Of a DNA stretch of 64,000 nucleotides, positions 8,164 through 31,545 are shown piece by piece (the first letter of the stretch is position 1; the number at the start of each line of letters is the position of its first letter). Below the pieces are notes generated by a model that did not search any database, was not told where the DNA came from, and saw only the letters and a list, made by a program, of their open reading frames with translations. The position numbers and the translations under genes were made by a program. This DNA is from Candidatus Poribacteria bacterium (GTDB lineage: Bacteria; Poribacteria; WGA-4E; WGA-3G), in assembly GCA_963665235.2 (NCBI GenBank), contig CAXXLX010000001.1, positions 864,001 to 928,000 of the forward strand. Direction: 5' to 3'.

Positions 8164-8300
8164 TATATATTGAAGAGCAGGCTTGTAGCCTGAAGCCTGT
8201 GTAATACTATGTATTTCACATCTTATACGGTTTGCAAGCTGCTTATAGAAAGCAACCAGGGTTCATCTACCAAAGCACGCAGAAAAATCCCGCGTGCGCC
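8164..8300 (-). ncRNA. Putative omega-RNA scaffold overlapping the tnpB 3' end and right end
   Basis: Position expected for TnpB loci; hairpin caggctt...aagcctg at about 8178-8199; 5' boundary is a guess. Confidence 0.5.
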
Positions 8301-9388
8301 GTTCAAATCTCTGTCCATCTTGAGTCCTGTGCTATCTTTGATAACTTTAGCGCCACCTAAGTTTTTGACAATCTCGCCTGTCCAAGACACAGTTTTTGAC
8401 GTGTAAGCCTCGCAGACATCCAGCACAAGACATCCAGTTTCTTTTGCTTTATGCTTAAGGAACTGTTTGAAACGGTAATGGGAGAGAGTCAACATTTGGC
8501 GGACTGTTCTTTTATGGAGTTTGCGTCCACTTTTACAAGTCTTATGAGAAGTCTCAAAAGTGGGGAGTAAGATAATATCAAAGTTATCGACAAGCCACCG
8601 TGCGACTTTCTTATGCAACTCATCCACAAGGTTTCTAATCCGTTTTCTGATACGATTTGCGGCACGTCTCATGTTCTTCTTTGCCTGTTGCTTAGTTGCT
8701 TTAGAGGCACGGGATAATAGGTCGTCAAGATATGAACAAAGTCGTTGAATACGATTAATTGCATGGTGTCCGAGCCAGCCGAACCCATGCTCATGAAAAT
8801 ATGTGAGGAATGTCCTAACACCGGGGTCAAGTGCGACGACACGTCCGTTTGGTTTTCGCTTCTGTGTCGTCACACTATAACTGACACACAAATAGTAGTG
8901 TGTGCCCTCTTTGACTAAGCGCGAGTCTTTGATATTTTCAGGGAGACGCTCACTGAGCCTAAGTTTTCCTAACTTTGTGTGATATACGCCATTTTCAGAT
9001 ATGGCAGCTTTGGGTATAAAGATACTATCTGAAGGCGTTCGTTTAGATTTAAATGAAACAGATTGAAACTGTCCCGTTTTCTGACATTTCTGCTTTGCTG
9101 CGCGAACAGCAAGGCAAGCATCCCGAATAGCAACTGACTTAATTTGATATGGAACAGGTTTAGCCCAATCGGGTAAATCGTCAAGGATACCTGTCTTAAT
9201 CGCTATCCAGTTCGCTTGGGTGTCCGTGTTGTTCAACAAAGCAACCGTTTTGTTGTAGGTCCAACGCGCTGTGCCTATCCATTGACGCAGCGTCTCACGC
9301 TGTTCGGTTGTCGGATAAACTCTTATCTTCTTTGATTTGGTCACGGTAACTTCGGAGACCATGCAGTCTGCAACTGAAGACATGCAGG
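8223..9388 (-). CDS. tnpB: RNA-guided endonuclease TnpB (pro-Fanzor-like); frame stays open upstream to 9809, start uncertain
   Basis: KKIRVYP...Q...RWTYN N-terminus; RuvC-I VALDPG, shifted RuvC-II CEAYTSKT, RuvC-III DRDLNGARGI. Confidence 0.92.
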
Positions 9389-25222: not shown

Positions 25223-28200
25223 ATGAAGAAATATGACGATATAGAACTCATTCAACGCACACTCGAAGGCGATACGCAGGCATTCGCTGCGCTTGTGGAA
25301 AAATATCAGGAGCAGATACATGCACTCGCTTGGCGAAAAATTGGCGATTTTCATATCGCACAAGAGATTACACAGGACGCTTTTATCTCCGCCTATCAGA
25401 AGCTGGATACGCTCACACACCACAACCGGTTCGCAGGGTGGCTCTATGTCATTACAAATAACCTCTGCAACATGTGGCACAGAAAGAGAAGACCGCAACC
25501 CGAATCGCTTGAAAAGCTTGAAACAACTGACCCGGTTGAGTTGGAGGAGGCATATTATTCCGAATATATGTCTCGCCAACGCGAAGAAGCCGCAGCGCAA
25601 AAGAGACGCATTGCTGTTCAAAAGCTGCTCGATACACTCCAAGAAAGTGAACGCACTGTCATGACGCTTCACTACCTCGCCGGGTTGTCTTGTGAAGAGA
25701 TCAGTAAGTTCCTCGGTGTATCACCGAACACGGTGAAAAGCCGACTCCATCGCGCACGCGAACGACTAAAGAAGGAGGAAGCTGTGTTACACGAAAACCT
25801 TAGCAGTTTCAAACTGCCACCGCAATTGATAGAGAATATCATGAAGAAAATTTCACGCCCAACTGCTCCCCCCGCGGGAAATAAACCCTTGGTGCCGTTA
25901 GCGGTTTCCGCTGCGTCATCCATTTTAGTGCTGCTATTGATAGGGAGCGGCATGCAGCACCTACTCCGTTTTCAGCAACCGTATAGCTTCAACGCAACAT
26001 CGGAACCGAAGGTTGAGATAATTAATGCCAAATCTAATCTGCCGCTACTCTCAAAACCGGCAGTGCGGAATCGAGCCGGGTACTCAGATGTTTCTGGGAA
26101 CAGCAACGGCACTAAACAGAAACCGAACGCGCCCCTATTCGCTGCAGCAATGGCGGATGAAATCGAGATTTCAAACCCAAAAACACGGTGGGTTCAGACG
26201 AAAGGGCCAGAAGGCGGTGCAGTCGCTACCCTCTTCGAAACAACCCGTGGTGATATCTACGCAGCGACACAGAACAGCCTCTATAGATTGACAGATGATA
26301 GGTTAGCGTGGAAACACATTAGCAACATCAAGGGCCCCTCACACACGTCAATAGCGCAGAGAAGGGGATGGTGGCCTGTGGCAGAAAGGCAGGGGACGGT
26401 TTATATCGCTACCGATACAGGGATATTGGGTTCTACAGATAGAGGCGAAACGTGGGAAACGCTCTGTCCGCGTATAAAGGGACGGCTTGTTGACATGGTG
26501 GTAACTGATGGAATGCCAGAAACACAAAACGATATAACAATCTACCTCGCTTATACAAACGGGGTATTCCGATGGAGTAATGCTGACAAATCGTGGACCC
26601 CGCTGCCGGAAGGGATGACAGCTAACGAAATTCGTGCAATCGCTGCAATTGAAAACAGTGTCTTCGCGGGAACCAATAATGGCCTCTATCGCCTCAATGC
26701 TGACACGTGGGAGCAGGTGTCGATAGCACAGGAAAATGCCCAAGAAAAAACGGTTGGTGATATCCAGGGATTAGCAGTCGCAGAAAATAGGTTATACGTC
26801 TTAAGCGGCTGGAATTTAGAGGATAAATGGACTTTAGAGAGTAAAGATCCTAAAGGGGATTGGGTAGTAGGAGAAGGAGGTTGGATAGGATTAACAAATG
26901 CTACAGGTCCTCCTTTTTCGCTTTATTGCTCGACCGACCGAGGCGATACGTGGAAGTCTATAACGCCGAAACAGATTAACACTGGTATTAGTGAAATCAT
27001 GTGGGGAACGGATCCTGGAAGCTGGATTCCATTAGTACCGCGACATGAAACCAGCAGATATCAATTTCGCCCTGCAACACCGTACCCAAAGATTTTTGCG
27101 TTTGCGGCAGGGGAAAATGTCACGGTAATAACCAGCAATAAGACCTTTCGCTCCAGTGATGCAGGTGCAACTTGGACCCCTCTAAGTGCTATAGGAGATA
27201 TTATTGATTCCGTCGTGATGTTGAACGCAAACACCTTCTACAGAGACGGAACCTACGGAATTTATCGGACAACCGATGGCGGCAAGTCATGGCATCCATT
27301 CAATACCGGCCTTGTGAACACACATGTGAAAAAGGTCATTGCTGATAGCGGAATTCTTTACGCTAACACACAGAGTGGACTCGTACGTTCAACTGACAGC
27401 GGCGAATCTTGGGCAGCTGTTCCTGGCGATACAGGTTATCTTACACGTATTGCGGTATTTGATGGGGTACTCTATGCACGGTCTAATCAAAATATGGCAC
27501 CCCAACTTTTTTACTACTTATTCGCCGAAGACAATAGTCTCGCTGGCATTCCCGATGTCCCTATTTTAGAAAATAGAGACCCACTTGGTGCTATTTTAGA
27601 AAATAGAAATGTAAGAGCACGTAGAGGAATTCTTAAGGAAAATCGTGATGAGGTGCTCTTTCTTATACCACACAACAAGGGATTTTTCCTCTCTTCGCAG
27701 CTTGGAAGCTTCGCCGTTAGCGACACCGCACACTACATGGAATACGACAAAAAACTCTTTAGGTGGAATATCGGCGCACCGGATTGGTACGACACAGGCC
27801 TAGAGGATAGGGGTGAATTTTCTTTTTCTAAAAACGGATTACAGTTTGAGGCACATTTAGGTTTCAAACTCGCTGTTTCGGGGAAAACCGTTTATGTCGG
27901 CAAACGGGATGGACATCTCATGCAGTCGTTCGATGAAGGAACGAGATGGAACGATGTCACAGCAGACCTGCCGTTTTCTATCAACCATTTTAAGGCAATA
28001 GTTTTCGCTGAAAACTTCGTCTATGTGGCAACCGATAAAGGCGTAGTGCTGTCAGGCAACGGCACTGACTGGCACACACTCACCGATGCTGAAGGAACAC
28101 CGCTTGTTATGAGTAGATTGGCAACAGATGACACAACGGTTTACGGCGAAGCCGAACAGAAAATATATCAACTGAACAAGGACAGCGGCACATGGCAACA

Positions 28201-28309
28201 GGTCACACCGGAAATCCCATATCCGGTTTTCTCGTTTGATGTCGATGGGAATACGCTCTATGTCGGAACTAACGGCCATGGCGTGCTCCGCTTCTCGCTT
28301 GACGAATAG
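25223..28309 (+). CDS. ECF sigma factor / TM helix / BNR beta-propeller fusion
   Basis: sigma2 and sigma4 motifs, hydrophobic segment LAVSAASSILVLLLIG, many STD.G.TW Asp-box repeats. Confidence 0.92.
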   Translation: MKKYDDIELIQRTLEGDTQAFAALVEKYQEQIHALAWRKIGDFHIAQEITQDAFISAYQKLDTLTHHNRFAGWLYVITNNLCNMWHRKRRPQPESLEKLETTDPVELEEAYYSEYMSRQREEAAAQKRRIAVQKLLDTLQESERTVMTLHYLAGLSCEEISKFLGVSPNTVKSRLHRARERLKKEEAVLHENLSSFKLPPQLIENIMKKISRPTAPPAGNKPLVPLAVSAASSILVLLLIGSGMQHLLRFQQPYSFNATSEPKVEIINAKSNLPLLSKPAVRNRAGYSDVSGNSNGTKQKPNAPLFAAAMADEIEISNPKTRWVQTKGPEGGAVATLFETTRGDIYAATQNSLYRLTDDRLAWKHISNIKGPSHTSIAQRRGWWPVAERQGTVYIATDTGILGSTDRGETWETLCPRIKGRLVDMVVTDGMPETQNDITIYLAYTNGVFRWSNADKSWTPLPEGMTANEIRAIAAIENSVFAGTNNGLYRLNADTWEQVSIAQENAQEKTVGDIQGLAVAENRLYVLSGWNLEDKWTLESKDPKGDWVVGEGGWIGLTNATGPPFSLYCSTDRGDTWKSITPKQINTGISEIMWGTDPGSWIPLVPRHETSRYQFRPATPYPKIFAFAAGENVTVITSNKTFRSSDAGATWTPLSAIGDIIDSVVMLNANTFYRDGTYGIYRTTDGGKSWHPFNTGLVNTHVKKVIADSGILYANTQSGLVRSTDSGESWAAVPGDTGYLTRIAVFDGVLYARSNQNMAPQLFYYLFAEDNSLAGIPDVPILENRDPLGAILENRNVRARRGILKENRDEVLFLIPHNKGFFLSSQLGSFAVSDTAHYMEYDKKLFRWNIGAPDWYDTGLEDRGEFSFSKNGLQFEAHLGFKLAVSGKTVYVGKRDGHLMQSFDEGTRWNDVTADLPFSINHFKAIVFAENFVYVATDKGVVLSGNGTDWHTLTDAEGTPLVMSRLATDDTTVYGEAEQKIYQLNKDSGTWQQVTPEIPYPVFSFDVDGNTLYVGTNGHGVLRFSLDE

Positions 28310-28491
28310 CTGGAGGGTGTGTAAAGTTTTTTACGGGCATTCGGGCGTAAGGTTTCCCAATCCTTTAGGTTTGGGATATAAGTTTCCCGCTAAGGGCGTA
28401 ATCCCTGAAAATTAATTTGAGGAATATTGATGACCTTGTGTCATAAATATCCCTCCTTTGACCAAAAACTGTGGTATAATTATACTGACAC

Positions 28492-28551
28492 TTTTGGATA
28501 GGAGTTCTACCCTACACAAACTTTTGGATAGGAGTTCTACCCTACACAAAC
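28492..28551. repeat. 30-bp direct duplication
   Basis: ttttggataggagttctaccctacacaaac twice. Confidence 0.9.
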
Positions 28552-28830
28552 TCAGTGTGGGTCCTATCCCTCACCTGTAGAACGGTGTGTAGTGTTAGTG
28601 TTAGACCACTTAAAAAGTATATCGGGCAGTTAACGCATAATTGCATGAAAGCTTGTATCGTGGCGGGGGTGAAAGTCCGCACGTTGTATCACTGCCCCTC
28701 TCTTAAAATATCGTTTATGATTTCTTCAAAACGAGGCACGTGGGGATAGACAGGACCCTTCTGACCTGATATGCCTGTAGGATTTTTCACCTACAGGGAA
28801 TCGCGTGCGGGTGGAGACGACATAAAAGGA

Positions 28831-29137
28831 TGTCCTCGGTGGGACCGATGTCCTCGGTGGGACCGATGTCCTCGGTGGGACCGATGTCCTCGGTGGGACC
28901 GATGTCCTCGGTGGGACCGATGTCCTCGGTGGGACCGATGTCCTCGGTGGGGACCGATGTCCTCGGTGGGACCGATGTCCTCGGTGGGACCGATGTCCTC
29001 GGTGGGACCGATGTCCTCGGTGGGACCGATGTCCTCGGTGGGACCGATGTCCTCGGTGGGACCGATGTCCTCGGTGGGACCGATGTCCTCGGTGGGGACC
29101 GATGTCCTCGGTGGGACCGATGTCCTCGGTGGGACCT
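28831..29137. repeat. Tandem array of 17 copies of an 18-bp unit (tgtcctcggtgggaccga)
   Basis: Directly visible; two units carry an extra G. Confidence 0.97.
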
Positions 29138-29214
29138 CGGACGTTCGACCTTCGGGAAGAACGCAAACGTCTATGAAGCCGAAGCCCACGCCTTTAGGCG
29201 TTGGGTGCTATCAC

Positions 29215-29987
29215 TACAGGGACAATTGAATATATCTCTCTATACGGTATTGACCCCAACACAAGCAGAAATTTGGGAAGGAATGGTGATTTTCGAAAAG
29301 AGGGAGACATCTCCAGATACACTTCAGAACGAATTCAAATCGCAACGTTGGCAATTGGCAGAAGCAATCCTGGGACTACATACACAACAGCTCGGGCCGC
29401 TCAACGAAATTGCAGAGAAACGTTTGGAAATCGCTACCAAAGGGGTGCTCCAACAATACATTGAAGTGCGAAATCAGGACGACAGCGAAAAGCTTTGGTA
29501 TCTGCTTGACTTATATAGGCTCTGGGTGAAGGTCCTAAAGCAAAATATTCCTCGCGAACAGGCTGCTAAGGAGCTTGAAGCCATGAAGAAAACGTTGGCG
29601 GACGAAAGCTGGACTAACAAACTGTGGGGCGGCGCGGAGCTGTACAACATTACAAATCATCCGCTCTACCAACAGGCGATCAAAGATGTACTTCCTGATG
29701 AGGCATATTCGGAATATGTTGCCTGTCAAACCGAACGCCAGGTTTTCCAAGCACAAGCTGCCCGTGATATGTTAGTGGTATACATGGATACGGTCCTGCT
29801 CTTGAAAGGGACGCAACGGAAACAGTTGGAAACAGCGGCAGCGCAGGTGCCGCTTCTCTCGTTGAGTCTGGAGGGATTGCAAATAATGAATGCTGAACTT
29901 TTGCTAAGGATAGGCCCCGAGATTCTTATGCCTTGGTATCAGGCTGCTCTTGAACAAGACGGATTGGCGAATCCACTTACACAATAG
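29215..29987 (+). pseudogene. 5'-truncated paralog of the gene at 30019-31545
   Basis: LNISLYTVLTPTQAEIW, IPREQAA and HPLYQQ.IK match the C-terminal half of the neighbour; homology starts right at the IS605-type right end. Confidence 0.75.
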
Positions 29988-30018
29988 ATGCAACCCTATT
30001 GTAAAGGAGGTAAAACAG

Positions 30019-31545
30019 ATGCCCCGTTCTATTTTGATACTAATAATCACTATATTCACAAGCGTTGCCTTTGCACAAGAAAACGCGCCGAACGGCGGCA
30101 CCCTCCGTGGCGAAGTTTTTGACACAACCGCAGAACCGAACCCAATCGAAGGGGTTACAGTTAATATTGTTGGGATAGATAAAAAGGTAGTCACAGTCAA
30201 AACGGATGCCAAAGGGCAATATAAATGTGATAACCTCCCCGCAGGCCGCTATCTGATTAATATGAGTAAAAAGGGATACAATGACCGGGTCGGTAGGGCT
30301 GTTACAATCGTTGATGGCGGAGACCACTTCGTTCAGATTAGAATGCACAAAAGGGACAATGCAGTTCCTGTTATCGATAGACCCCTTGGTTATATCATTG
30401 GGAGTATAGGCGAGCGTTACAAATTGGAGGAGTCTTCTATGGGGGCACTCTATCAGTCGCTTCTTGAAGTACTCACTAGGTTGGAACCGGGAAATCTAGA
30501 GGCGAAATTACAAGAAAACAACCTGATGGGGGCAATGGCATTGTTGTCGCACCCTGATAGCAAGGCAGCCTTCGCGAAGCATCTAACCGAAACGCAACTT
30601 CACGATTATATAGAGTTCATCGAGAATCGACAACAGCGAGCATGGCAAACGGTCGCTCACTTCCTAACGGCGTTCCTCGACCAAACCCTCAGTCTGAATT
30701 CCAAGCAGCGCGAAGATGTGCTCAAATTGCTACTTGACACAATAGCGCATTCGCCGAAACTGGACCTAGACTCTATGTTTAGGGGCCCCAACTTACAGCG
30801 CGAAGCTGTGGATTTGCTACCTGATGATTTGAAAATATCTCTACAGACGATATTGACTCCAACTCAGGTAAAAATTTGGCACGGATTAATTAAACTGATA
30901 AATCCTAAAAGGGATTTGGTTGACGAATCTGAACTGTCAGAGATGATAGACGCGCTATTAACAGCACATACCGAACAACAGCTAGGAACGCTCAGTGAAC
31001 GGGAAAATCAACGTTTGCGGGTAGCCATCAAAGGAGTAATCCAACAAGCTATTGAAACGCAAAAGCCGGACATCGAGGAAAAAATCAACTATATTGATGC
31101 CTCATTTACGCTCCTAGCTGGACTCATAAGGCAAGATGTTCCTCGCGAACAGGCTGCTGAACAGCTCGAACTCCTGAAGAAAAAGTTCACGGATGAAATG
31201 GTTATGAGTAAACGATGGCGTGGGCCTGAACTGCCCGACCTTACGAGTCATCCGCTTTACCAACAGACAATCAAAGAGGTGCTATCTGAAGAGGCTTATC
31301 GACAATATACCGAACGTCAAACCGAACGACAAGTTTTCCAGACGCAGGCTTCGCAGGCAATGCTTGTGACCTCCTTAGACGCGGCGCTGCTCTTGAAGGA
31401 GACACACCGAAAACAGTTAGAAACAACTACAGCACAGCTGACGCTTCTCGCGTTGAGCGCGGAGGGGCTTCACATGATGACTACCGAAATGGTCATAACG
31501 ATGAACCCCGAGATACTGAGGCTTTTAAGGCTGTATAATGATTAA
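30019..31545 (+). CDS. Secreted protein with carboxypeptidase-regulatory-like N-terminal domain and helical C-terminus
   Basis: AAGGAGG RBS, signal peptide, G.V.D...PIEGVTV...TDAKGQY..NLPAGRY...KKGY. Confidence 0.8.
   Translation: MPRSILILIITIFTSVAFAQENAPNGGTLRGEVFDTTAEPNPIEGVTVNIVGIDKKVVTVKTDAKGQYKCDNLPAGRYLINMSKKGYNDRVGRAVTIVDGGDHFVQIRMHKRDNAVPVIDRPLGYIIGSIGERYKLEESSMGALYQSLLEVLTRLEPGNLEAKLQENNLMGAMALLSHPDSKAAFAKHLTETQLHDYIEFIENRQQRAWQTVAHFLTAFLDQTLSLNSKQREDVLKLLLDTIAHSPKLDLDSMFRGPNLQREAVDLLPDDLKISLQTILTPTQVKIWHGLIKLINPKRDLVDESELSEMIDALLTAHTEQQLGTLSERENQRLRVAIKGVIQQAIETQKPDIEEKINYIDASFTLLAGLIRQDVPREQAAEQLELLKKKFTDEMVMSKRWRGPELPDLTSHPLYQQTIKEVLSEEAYRQYTERQTERQVFQTQASQAMLVTSLDAALLLKETHRKQLETTTAQLTLLALSAEGLHMMTTEMVITMNPEILRLLRLYND

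Follow-up and report, generated by a model that had tools for sequence, protein, structure and literature searches.

A gene-less IS200/IS605-type element family of Poribacteria with a covarying 5′ pseudoknot domain ahead of an omega-RNA-type scaffold

The window analysed here is a 64,000-nt stretch from Candidatus Poribacteria bacterium (GCA_963665235.2, contig CAXXLX010000001.1, positions 864,001-928,000, forward strand), in the genomic context of sponge-associated Poribacteria, to our knowledge a phylum without cultured members. At window positions 28335-29214 lies an 880-bp element (copy A) that begins directly after TTTAC, terminates in TCAC and, on its sequence features, is a non-autonomous IS200/IS605 element of the palindrome-associated transposable element (PATE) type, devoid of open reading frames (ORFs). 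No conserved ORF was found within it: the long ORFs listed merely read through a repeat array, the frame 28830-29987 being open across its 18-bp units. The interior holds a promoter and a set of structured RNA domains, of which the first is a covarying pseudoknot fold and the last resembles the omega-RNA scaffold of TnpB nucleases. A first-pass annotation of this DNA had placed the element at 28347-29214; the right end stands, while the start is corrected to 28335. The boundaries are marked by the following features (window coordinates; ‘own’ refers to the genome that contains the window):

28330-28334, + strand: target or transposon-adjacent motif TTTAC; TTTAC or TTAC closes the left flank in own copies A, B, D and E and in the relative L032
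28335-28413, + strand: left end (LE), kept among copies and also found in a tnpB-only element (C1:667478-667535)
28356-28375, + strand: LE subterminal hairpin, with a loop that resembles the loop of the right-end hairpin
29185-29205, + strand: right-end (RE) subterminal hairpin, with compensatory changes (alignment columns 490-503 and following); the same hairpin type lies 3′ of tnpB genes
29211-29214, + strand: RE terminus TCAC, where all type-1 copies stop and beyond which flanks diverge

End hairpins in the style of IS200/IS605 had been proposed previously and are present, in excess of what chance would give. Both subterminal hairpins lie on one strand, with TTTAC fixed on the left and TCAC on the right in the type-1 copies inspected. 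TTTAC precedes the four full-length copies with the window copy’s LE type (A, B, D and E), copies C and G have a second LE type preceded by TTTAC- or TTATC-type motifs, and TCAC terminates all six full-length own copies (A, B, C, D, E and G).

Between the left end and the RNA domains lies the promoter region:

28420-28460, + strand: ~41-bp insertion that displaces the ancestral -35 box, found in copies A and B only; copies C, D, E, G and H have TTGACT, 17 nt, then TATAAT
28458-28486, + strand: promoter, with TTGACC at 28458-28463, extended -10 box TGGTATAAT at 28472-28480 and an alternative -10, TATACT, at 28481-28486

The extended -10 box TGGTATAAT occurs exactly where it had been annotated (28472-28480). 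In the window copy, TTGACC stands only 11 nt upstream of this box; a promoter scan pairs TTGACC with TATACT at 17-nt spacing (10 of 12 matches). The promoter is of the sigma-70 type and conserved. Of 54 distinct upstream contexts surveyed across the family, 40 agree with TATAAT at five or more of six positions, 33 show TG at -15/-14, and 38 agree with TTGACA at five or more of six positions, at a spacing of 16-18 nt. The seventh base after the -10 hexamer is the usual +1 position, and in 36 of the 54 contexts it is also the first paired base of the first helix, P1; the RNA would therefore begin inside a helix. This promoter is homologous to the tnpB promoter of the protein-coding relatives, and no terminator-like site was detected in 28200-29500. 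One metatranscriptomic run contained contigs of related copies with a depth of 56-233 over the RNA parts and none over the left-flanking gene (the comparison covered 27800-28828 and uncovered parts carry no weight), which, as the run is kept as contigs, we take as a weak hint of transcription.

The RNA opens with a knotted domain:

28487-28610, + strand: 5′ pseudoknot domain, delimited with covariance model R1; it contains the 30-bp duplication described next
28490-28552, + strand: 30-bp unit repeated 2.1 times (Tandem Repeats Finder), inside the 5′ domain
28487-28492 with 28591-28596, + strand: helix P1, which closes the domain
28526-28533 with 28562-28569, + strand: helix P2, which carries an internal loop and hairpin P4
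28534-28540 with 28577-28583, + strand: helix P3, the pseudoknot, in which the P5 hairpin loop pairs with the P2 internal loop
28541-28547 with 28555-28561, + strand: hairpin P4
28572-28575 with 28584-28587, + strand: hairpin P5
28597-28600 with 28607-28610, + strand: hairpin P6, directly after the domain’s closing helix; its 5′ strand repeats, in tandem, the heptamer of the P1 3′ strand

Covariation strongly supports this fold. Model R1 (98 positions, 29 pairs) was built for the first ~98 nt alone; 55 matches to it, 52 of them distinct, were realigned to R1 and pairs were counted over six helices, the pseudoknot not being part of the model. Two-sided changes occur in 33 of the 36 pairs, and 96.9% of cells are paired, against a mean of 78.2% in shuffles (none of 500 reached the observed value) and 33.9-46.6% when partners were slid; the covariation score is 0.581 compared with 0.213 for the control. 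As the R1 alignment was fitted to the nested helices, these figures flatter them, but the pseudoknot is free of that bias: six of the seven P3 pairs show compensatory changes and 97.5% of P3 cells are paired. Full-length RNAs were also aligned (14 sequences, five own and nine from four related genera-level groups), yielding an RNAalifold consensus of 79 pairs, 32 with two-sided changes.

Seven complementary pairings had been read from the letters of the window beforehand, and five of them fall in covarying helices: actgacact/agtgttagt is P1, ggatagga/tcctatcc is P2, gttctac/gtagaac is the pseudoknot P3, gggcagt/actgccc closes the middle domain described below and cctgtagg/cctacagg is a hairpin of the omega-RNA module. 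The other two fell away: gggtcct/aggaccc receives no support from covariation, nor does ctacaca/tgtgtag, where CCTACAC pairs instead with GTGTGGG in P4. Nor did we adopt a long-range helix, predicted by RNAalifold, that would join CCACU, where the 5′ domain ends, to GGUGG ahead of the scaffold: its columns hardly vary, and the local hairpin P6 shows compensatory changes.

Known RNA families offered no match to this fold. The 64-kb window gave no Rfam match at the gathering score, and searches of the element region at E up to 10 and of five clean copies at E up to 5 returned only sub-threshold hairpin noise. Nor did ARAGORN detect any tRNA-like or tmRNA gene within 28200-29400. A hepatitis delta virus (HDV)-like ribozyme was weighed because the helix order is that of a nested double pseudoknot, and was rejected for want of Rfam support at permissive thresholds. 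The group I P3-P7 arrangement differs from the helix order of the 5′ domain; the Rfam model Intron_gpI was matched neither in the window region (E up to 10) nor in the five clean copies (E up to 5), and a group I intron or IStron was rejected on this ground and because the RNA has its own promoter.

Among the remaining explanations for the fold, the 5′ and middle domains might together form an RNA of independent function that rides beside an omega-RNA remnant, be it a ribozyme, a sensor of some ligand, an RNA that regulates or acts as a decoy or, in one version, an omega-RNA-core mimic that titrates or recruits TnpB. The strand order P2, P3, hairpin P4, P2′, P3′ would suit such an RNA, as would the retention of the 5′ domain across genera and four omega-RNA types, the alternative P1/P6 pairings that the duplicated heptamer permits, and the resemblance, in the own genome, of P2 and its preceding hairpin to the RE hairpin and terminal pseudoknot strand. 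That resemblance is lost in relatives, however, where P2 covaries away; few unpaired nucleotides are conserved, so no ligand pocket or active site is evident; the Rfam searches, which include self-cleaving ribozymes, riboswitches, HEARO and IS605-associated motifs, were empty even at E up to 5-10; and an omega-type module and RE follow the domain in 49 of 55 copies. We consider an independent RNA improbable.

The fold might alternatively act in single-stranded DNA during peel-and-paste transposition. It shares the top strand with the TnpA hairpins, so strand asymmetry cannot separate RNA from top-strand DNA. Against a role in DNA, the promoter is kept with +1 at P1 in most copies, G-U pairs are frequent (17 of 52 sequences at one P2 pair, 11 of 52 and 12 of 52 at two others) and protein-coding relatives transpose without the 5′ domain; we rate a DNA function as very unlikely.

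Downstream of the 5′ domain, the element continues as follows:

28624-28697, + strand: middle domain, closed by the stem GGGCAG/CTGCCC and holding an internal hairpin whose loop is GGTGAAAG; pairs of the closing stem and inner hairpins covary (RNAalifold, 14 full-length RNAs)
28712-28733, + strand: small hairpin that separates the middle domain from the omega-RNA module; every full-length type-1 copy has one, with varying sequence
28735-29214, + strand: TnpB omega-RNA-type scaffold, profile positions 286-387 matching C1:332265-332366 (nhmmer), with covarying stems
28829-29136, + strand: 18-bp unit repeated 17.0 times with 98% matches (Tandem Repeats Finder), within a variable stem-loop of the omega-RNA
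29215-29230, + strand: would-be guide taken from the flank, by the position rule for TnpB omega-RNAs

Own copy E lacks the middle domain, and element types 2-4 have a different one. The omega-RNA-like tail reported earlier is borne out: the last ~100 nt match the 3′ end and RE of an own-genome tnpB element at C1:332265-332366 (nhmmer E = 1.3e-24), directly after the gene for a 368-residue TnpB, and weaker profile matches follow three further tnpB genes. On the strength of this homology we regard the 3′ part as an omega-RNA scaffold. Structures of TnpB have a pseudoknot next to the guide, and GATAG (28745-28749) can pair with CTATC (29208-29212), just ahead of the terminal AC; type-3 copies have a matching CATAG/CTATG by eye. 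By analogy, and with thin support, the longer GATAGC/GCTATC pairing fits that guide-adjacent pseudoknot. In TnpB omega-RNAs, the scaffold ends at the RE and the flank supplies the guide (10.1101/2023.03.14.532601).

Within the own genome (5.3 Mb, four contigs), BLAST and profile searches located about a dozen further sites that hold complete or partial copies, in unrelated surroundings; some 12 own copies carry the 5′ domain. Clean full-length copies measure 386-424 nt from RNA start to right end and have neither tandem repeat. The genome also holds 44 TnpB TNB-domain matches and 13 Y1 tnpA matches (PF01797), 12 of them above cut-off. Together, the many copies, their differing flanks, a common TTTAC/TTAAC-type target, ends in common with tnpB and tnpA elements (such as the LE of the tnpB-only element at C1:667478-667535) and the 13 tnpA matches imply that the element is mobilised in trans, in keeping with the first-pass annotation and as far as sequence can tell.

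The closest relatives with a gene are own IS605/IS1341-type tnpB elements (for example C1:331168-332366 and L079), which resemble the gene-less elements in LE type, promoter, omega-RNA 3′ module and RE. In L079, which encodes a 388-residue TnpB, the same LE type is followed by the promoter TTGACA-17-TGTGGTATAAT, and the 3′ module is that of the short ‘type 3’ gene-less copies; both the 368- and 388-residue candidate TnpBs bear OrfB_IS605 and TNB domains. In the window family, by contrast, structured RNA domains stand in place of the 5′ untranslated region and tnpB ORF. Given the common LE, promoter and 3′ module, we take the gene-less elements to be derivatives of tnpB elements in which these two parts were replaced.

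Decayed tnpA or tnpB as the source of the interior was ruled out with tblastn: 11 own TnpA/TnpB proteins searched against ten own copies gave only noise in the interiors, except that short copy H retains the last 21 codons of the 388-residue tnpB (E ~1e-7). With coding remnants limited to that tail and with strong covariation, the proposal that structured RNA rather than decayed genes fills the interior holds.

Three sets of loci lie apart from this family. Six TnpB-like ORFs of 528-550 residues with a TNB domain, one at 8286-8480 (- strand) in the window and five elsewhere in the own genome, have none of the four RE signatures downstream. Two gene-less elements, L077 (C1:1424800-1425650) and C1:2373664-2374100, share the end types and omega-RNA module and have no 5′ pseudoknot domain; their interiors are distinct from the window family and conserved between the two, and may represent another cargo RNA or a decayed gene. 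Tandem ~40-bp units containing GTAGCATAAACTTCCAGTTTGTGC adjoin IS605-type elements at L073:1-160 (C1:102200-102360) and downstream of tnpB C1:2105711.

Searches with R1 in the wider family, scoring 36 candidates per genome, gave matches in 72 of 112 genomes (23/40, 47/65, 1/3, 0/1 and 0/2 by genus), with up to at least 36 and 35 matches in two genomes. In a sample of the order, 63 of 103 genomes of the own family had matches, compared with 0/11, 2/29 (weak) and 0/7 in other families; a sample of the phylum, 11 genomes over five further families, gave none. A 19-mer scan of one genome per species of bacteria and archaea produced 80 loci, 70 of them titled Candidatus Poribacteria. None of the other ten matched R1 at E < 0.01 (two were weak, E = 0.06 and 0.69), and we therefore regard them as chance matches. 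Within the searched genomes, the 5′ domain is thus confined to Poribacteria and nearly all occurrences are in one family.

The 55 5′-domain copies examined all sit in protein-free elements: no tnpB lies between the 5′ domain and the RE in any of them, and none of 12 own-genome R1 matches coincides with a tnpB locus from the TNB-domain search. An RE signature follows at 260-424 nt in 46 copies (701 nt in the window copy); the other nine comprise three with variant REs by eye, two cut by contig ends, three without an RE and one truncated domain. The 5′ domain is joined to four omega-RNA/right-end types, each of which also occurs 3′ of own-genome tnpB genes (at 1, 6, 2 and 11 loci, respectively, in a survey of 36).

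The three RE-less rows represent two loci, both abutting the start of a gene: L068/L110 in genome G012 and L106 in G024 lie directly upstream. The G012 copy precedes a lipoprotein gene, the likely own-genome orthologue of which is preceded by the L077 element. These may be old insertions kept as leaders. A further divergent copy, L011:1491-1830 (C1:2325765-2326100), stands at the very start of a gene for an sdhB-like iron-sulfur subunit, with a ribosome-binding site and ATG inside its RE in frame with the gene; from the sequence, this insertion appears to supply a new start and ~19 extra residues.

Such loci invite the idea that the element is a portable promoter or leader that drives or rescues a neighbouring gene, for which one could cite the strong outward-reading promoter with no terminator-like site, the ribosome-binding site and ATG directly after copies B, F and L045, the in-frame start supplied to the sdhB-like gene and the two RE-less loci at gene starts. 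Yet a crude stop-to-stop ORF test on the 43 elements that are followed by 500 nt or more of sequence placed the closest long ORF in the same orientation in 20 and in the opposite one in 19, and found none in four. On this absence of orientation bias (20 versus 19) we reject a mobile promoter as the general function, and we hold the idea itself to be most unlikely.

Our preferred reading, to which we assign a probability of about 0.6, is that of a gene-less PATE-type element that specifies a promoter-driven composite guide RNA, depends on TnpA and TnpB supplied in trans and carries a 5′ domain that may protect the orphan guide RNA. The promoter would make an RNA of ~390 nt (~730 nt in the window copy) in three parts: the ~98-nt 5′ domain, with its first helix at the predicted +1 and its junction locked by the loop-to-internal-loop pseudoknot; the variable middle domain; and the TnpB omega-RNA scaffold, which would run past the RE into the flank and so take 29215-29230 as guide. 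A Y1 TnpA made elsewhere would move the element. A TnpB made elsewhere, the candidate for the window type being the 368-residue protein encoded at C1:331168-332274, would load the RNA and cut the empty TTTAC-plus-guide site after excision, whereupon, under the published homing model, recombination would restore the element. As a best guess, the 5′ domain would protect or stabilise a guide RNA that is not made beside its protein, given that an RNA paired from its first nucleotide, inside a knotted fold, should resist 5′-end-dependent decay; help with TnpB loading or processing is our second guess.

More tentatively, and with odds we would put against it, the 5′ domain may be a new functional RNA module that arose within gene-less guide-RNA transposons, or was acquired by them, and then passed between four TnpB lineages, acting as a built-in cap against 5′-dependent RNases or as a competitor for, or recruiter of, TnpB made by other elements. 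If so, what was left of an omega-RNA would, with this module, have become a self-sufficient ‘RNA-only’ parasite of the TnpA/TnpB machinery.

Several observations count against the guide-RNA reading. The stabiliser role of the 5′ domain is a guess modelled solely on its geometry. Only a single intact own-genome tnpB bears the window copy’s RE type. In the GATAGC/GCTATC pseudoknot, one of six pairs shows a compensatory change (G-C to C-G, in two of 14 sequences) and the others are invariant. Some of the metatranscriptomic contigs span the LE and promoter too, so DNA carry-over or read-through is possible. The window copy itself, moreover, has a displaced -35 box, a 30-nt insertion in its 5′ domain and a 306-nt array in its scaffold, and its fold is no better than that of shuffles (z = -0.70, compared with -2.36 for a clean copy).

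The state of the window copy raises the prospect that it is dying, such that the family may be functional while this member yields no useful RNA. Besides the fold score, this prospect draws on the ~41-bp insertion that displaces the -35 box, in copy B too, the 30-bp duplication in the 5′ domain and the 17-unit array in the scaffold; it is weakened by an intact extended -10 box and the 10/12 match of TTGACC-17-TATACT, by helices of the 5′ domain that can all still form (88.5 bits against R1), by the position of the array in a loop that varies among copies anyway, and by an intact RE and pseudoknot strand. A dying copy seems possible, though not the likelier state; we call the window copy atypical and allow that it has lost some or all of its function. 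Neither tandem repeat had been recorded in the first-pass annotation; the 18-bp array takes up 306 of the 880 bp. The 18-bp unit is single in copies E and F and missing from B, C, D and G.

The array unit (window 28829-29146) has a life beyond the element. It belongs to a 22-28-nt sequence found unchanged at 18 own-genome places, with two near-copies; the sites include L192 (C1:1402900-1404600), L193, L194 and about 15 other own-genome places, and none was found in the 111 other family genomes with up to two mismatches. Its contexts vary, always just ahead of GACGT: 11 are antisense in IsrB-like ORFs (RRXRR domain), three are in omega-RNA loops and the rest elsewhere, and one IsrB-like copy carries a second insertion at a position that is empty in its relatives. 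From these sequences it looks like a tiny, recently spreading hairpin insertion. A separate dispersed repeat of ~160 bp (for example C1:1400345-1400507) has at least 37 further own-genome copies at 88-98% identity. Directly downstream of the element, the ORF 29215-29987 resembles the C-terminal half of the next ORF, 29950-31545, and on that resemblance may be a truncated paralogue at the insertion site.

Elements of this general kind have precedents. PATEs ‘often encode’ omega-RNAs, necessarily used in trans by the TnpB of other elements (Meers et al., bioRxiv 10.1101/2023.03.14.532601); stand-alone omega-RNAs that have been mobilised act in trans together with compatible effectors, in a biological role described as unknown (Altae-Tran et al., PNAS 2023, PMC10691335); and an IStron-derived PATE has been shown (10.1101/2023.11.20.567912). 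Omega-RNA PATEs and the stand-alone omega-RNAs of OMEGA systems resemble the window family in being gene-less and multi-copy, with LE and RE hairpins, a scaffold ending at the RE and a flank-derived guide, and PATEs likewise depend on TnpA and TnpB made elsewhere. The Poribacteria family differs in adding the ~98-nt pseudoknotted 5′ domain and the middle domain, ~230 nt in total from promoter to scaffold, and in having one 5′ domain common to elements with four scaffolds and ends. IStrons and their PATE derivatives, which combine a group I intron with an omega-RNA within IS605/IS607 ends, are alike in placing a large structured RNA on the LE side and an omega-RNA on the RE side and in giving ORF-less derivatives; in the window family, by contrast, the RNA starts at its own promoter and not inside a host transcript.

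A looser parallel is with 5′-terminal stabilising stem-loops and exoribonuclease-resistant RNAs, which would be alike only in possible action, through a compact junction plus pseudoknot at the very 5′ end. The literature searched held no description of an added 5′ domain of this kind, although supplementary element lists may hold more, and nothing that joined Poribacteria with TnpB. Gene-less elements with a stand-alone omega-RNA are thus already published, and what is new is the accessory 5′ domain and its exchange among four guide lineages.

For Poribacteria, the 5′ domain is an RNA motif that is both new and well supported. These gene-less elements have clearly been under selection and have kept a strong promoter and gained a conserved, covarying fold that is missing from their protein-coding relatives. 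The domain gives a concrete way to ask what lets an orphan guide RNA persist and compete for a nuclease made in trans and, if it stabilises or loads guide RNAs, it might serve as an add-on for TnpB-based editing tools.

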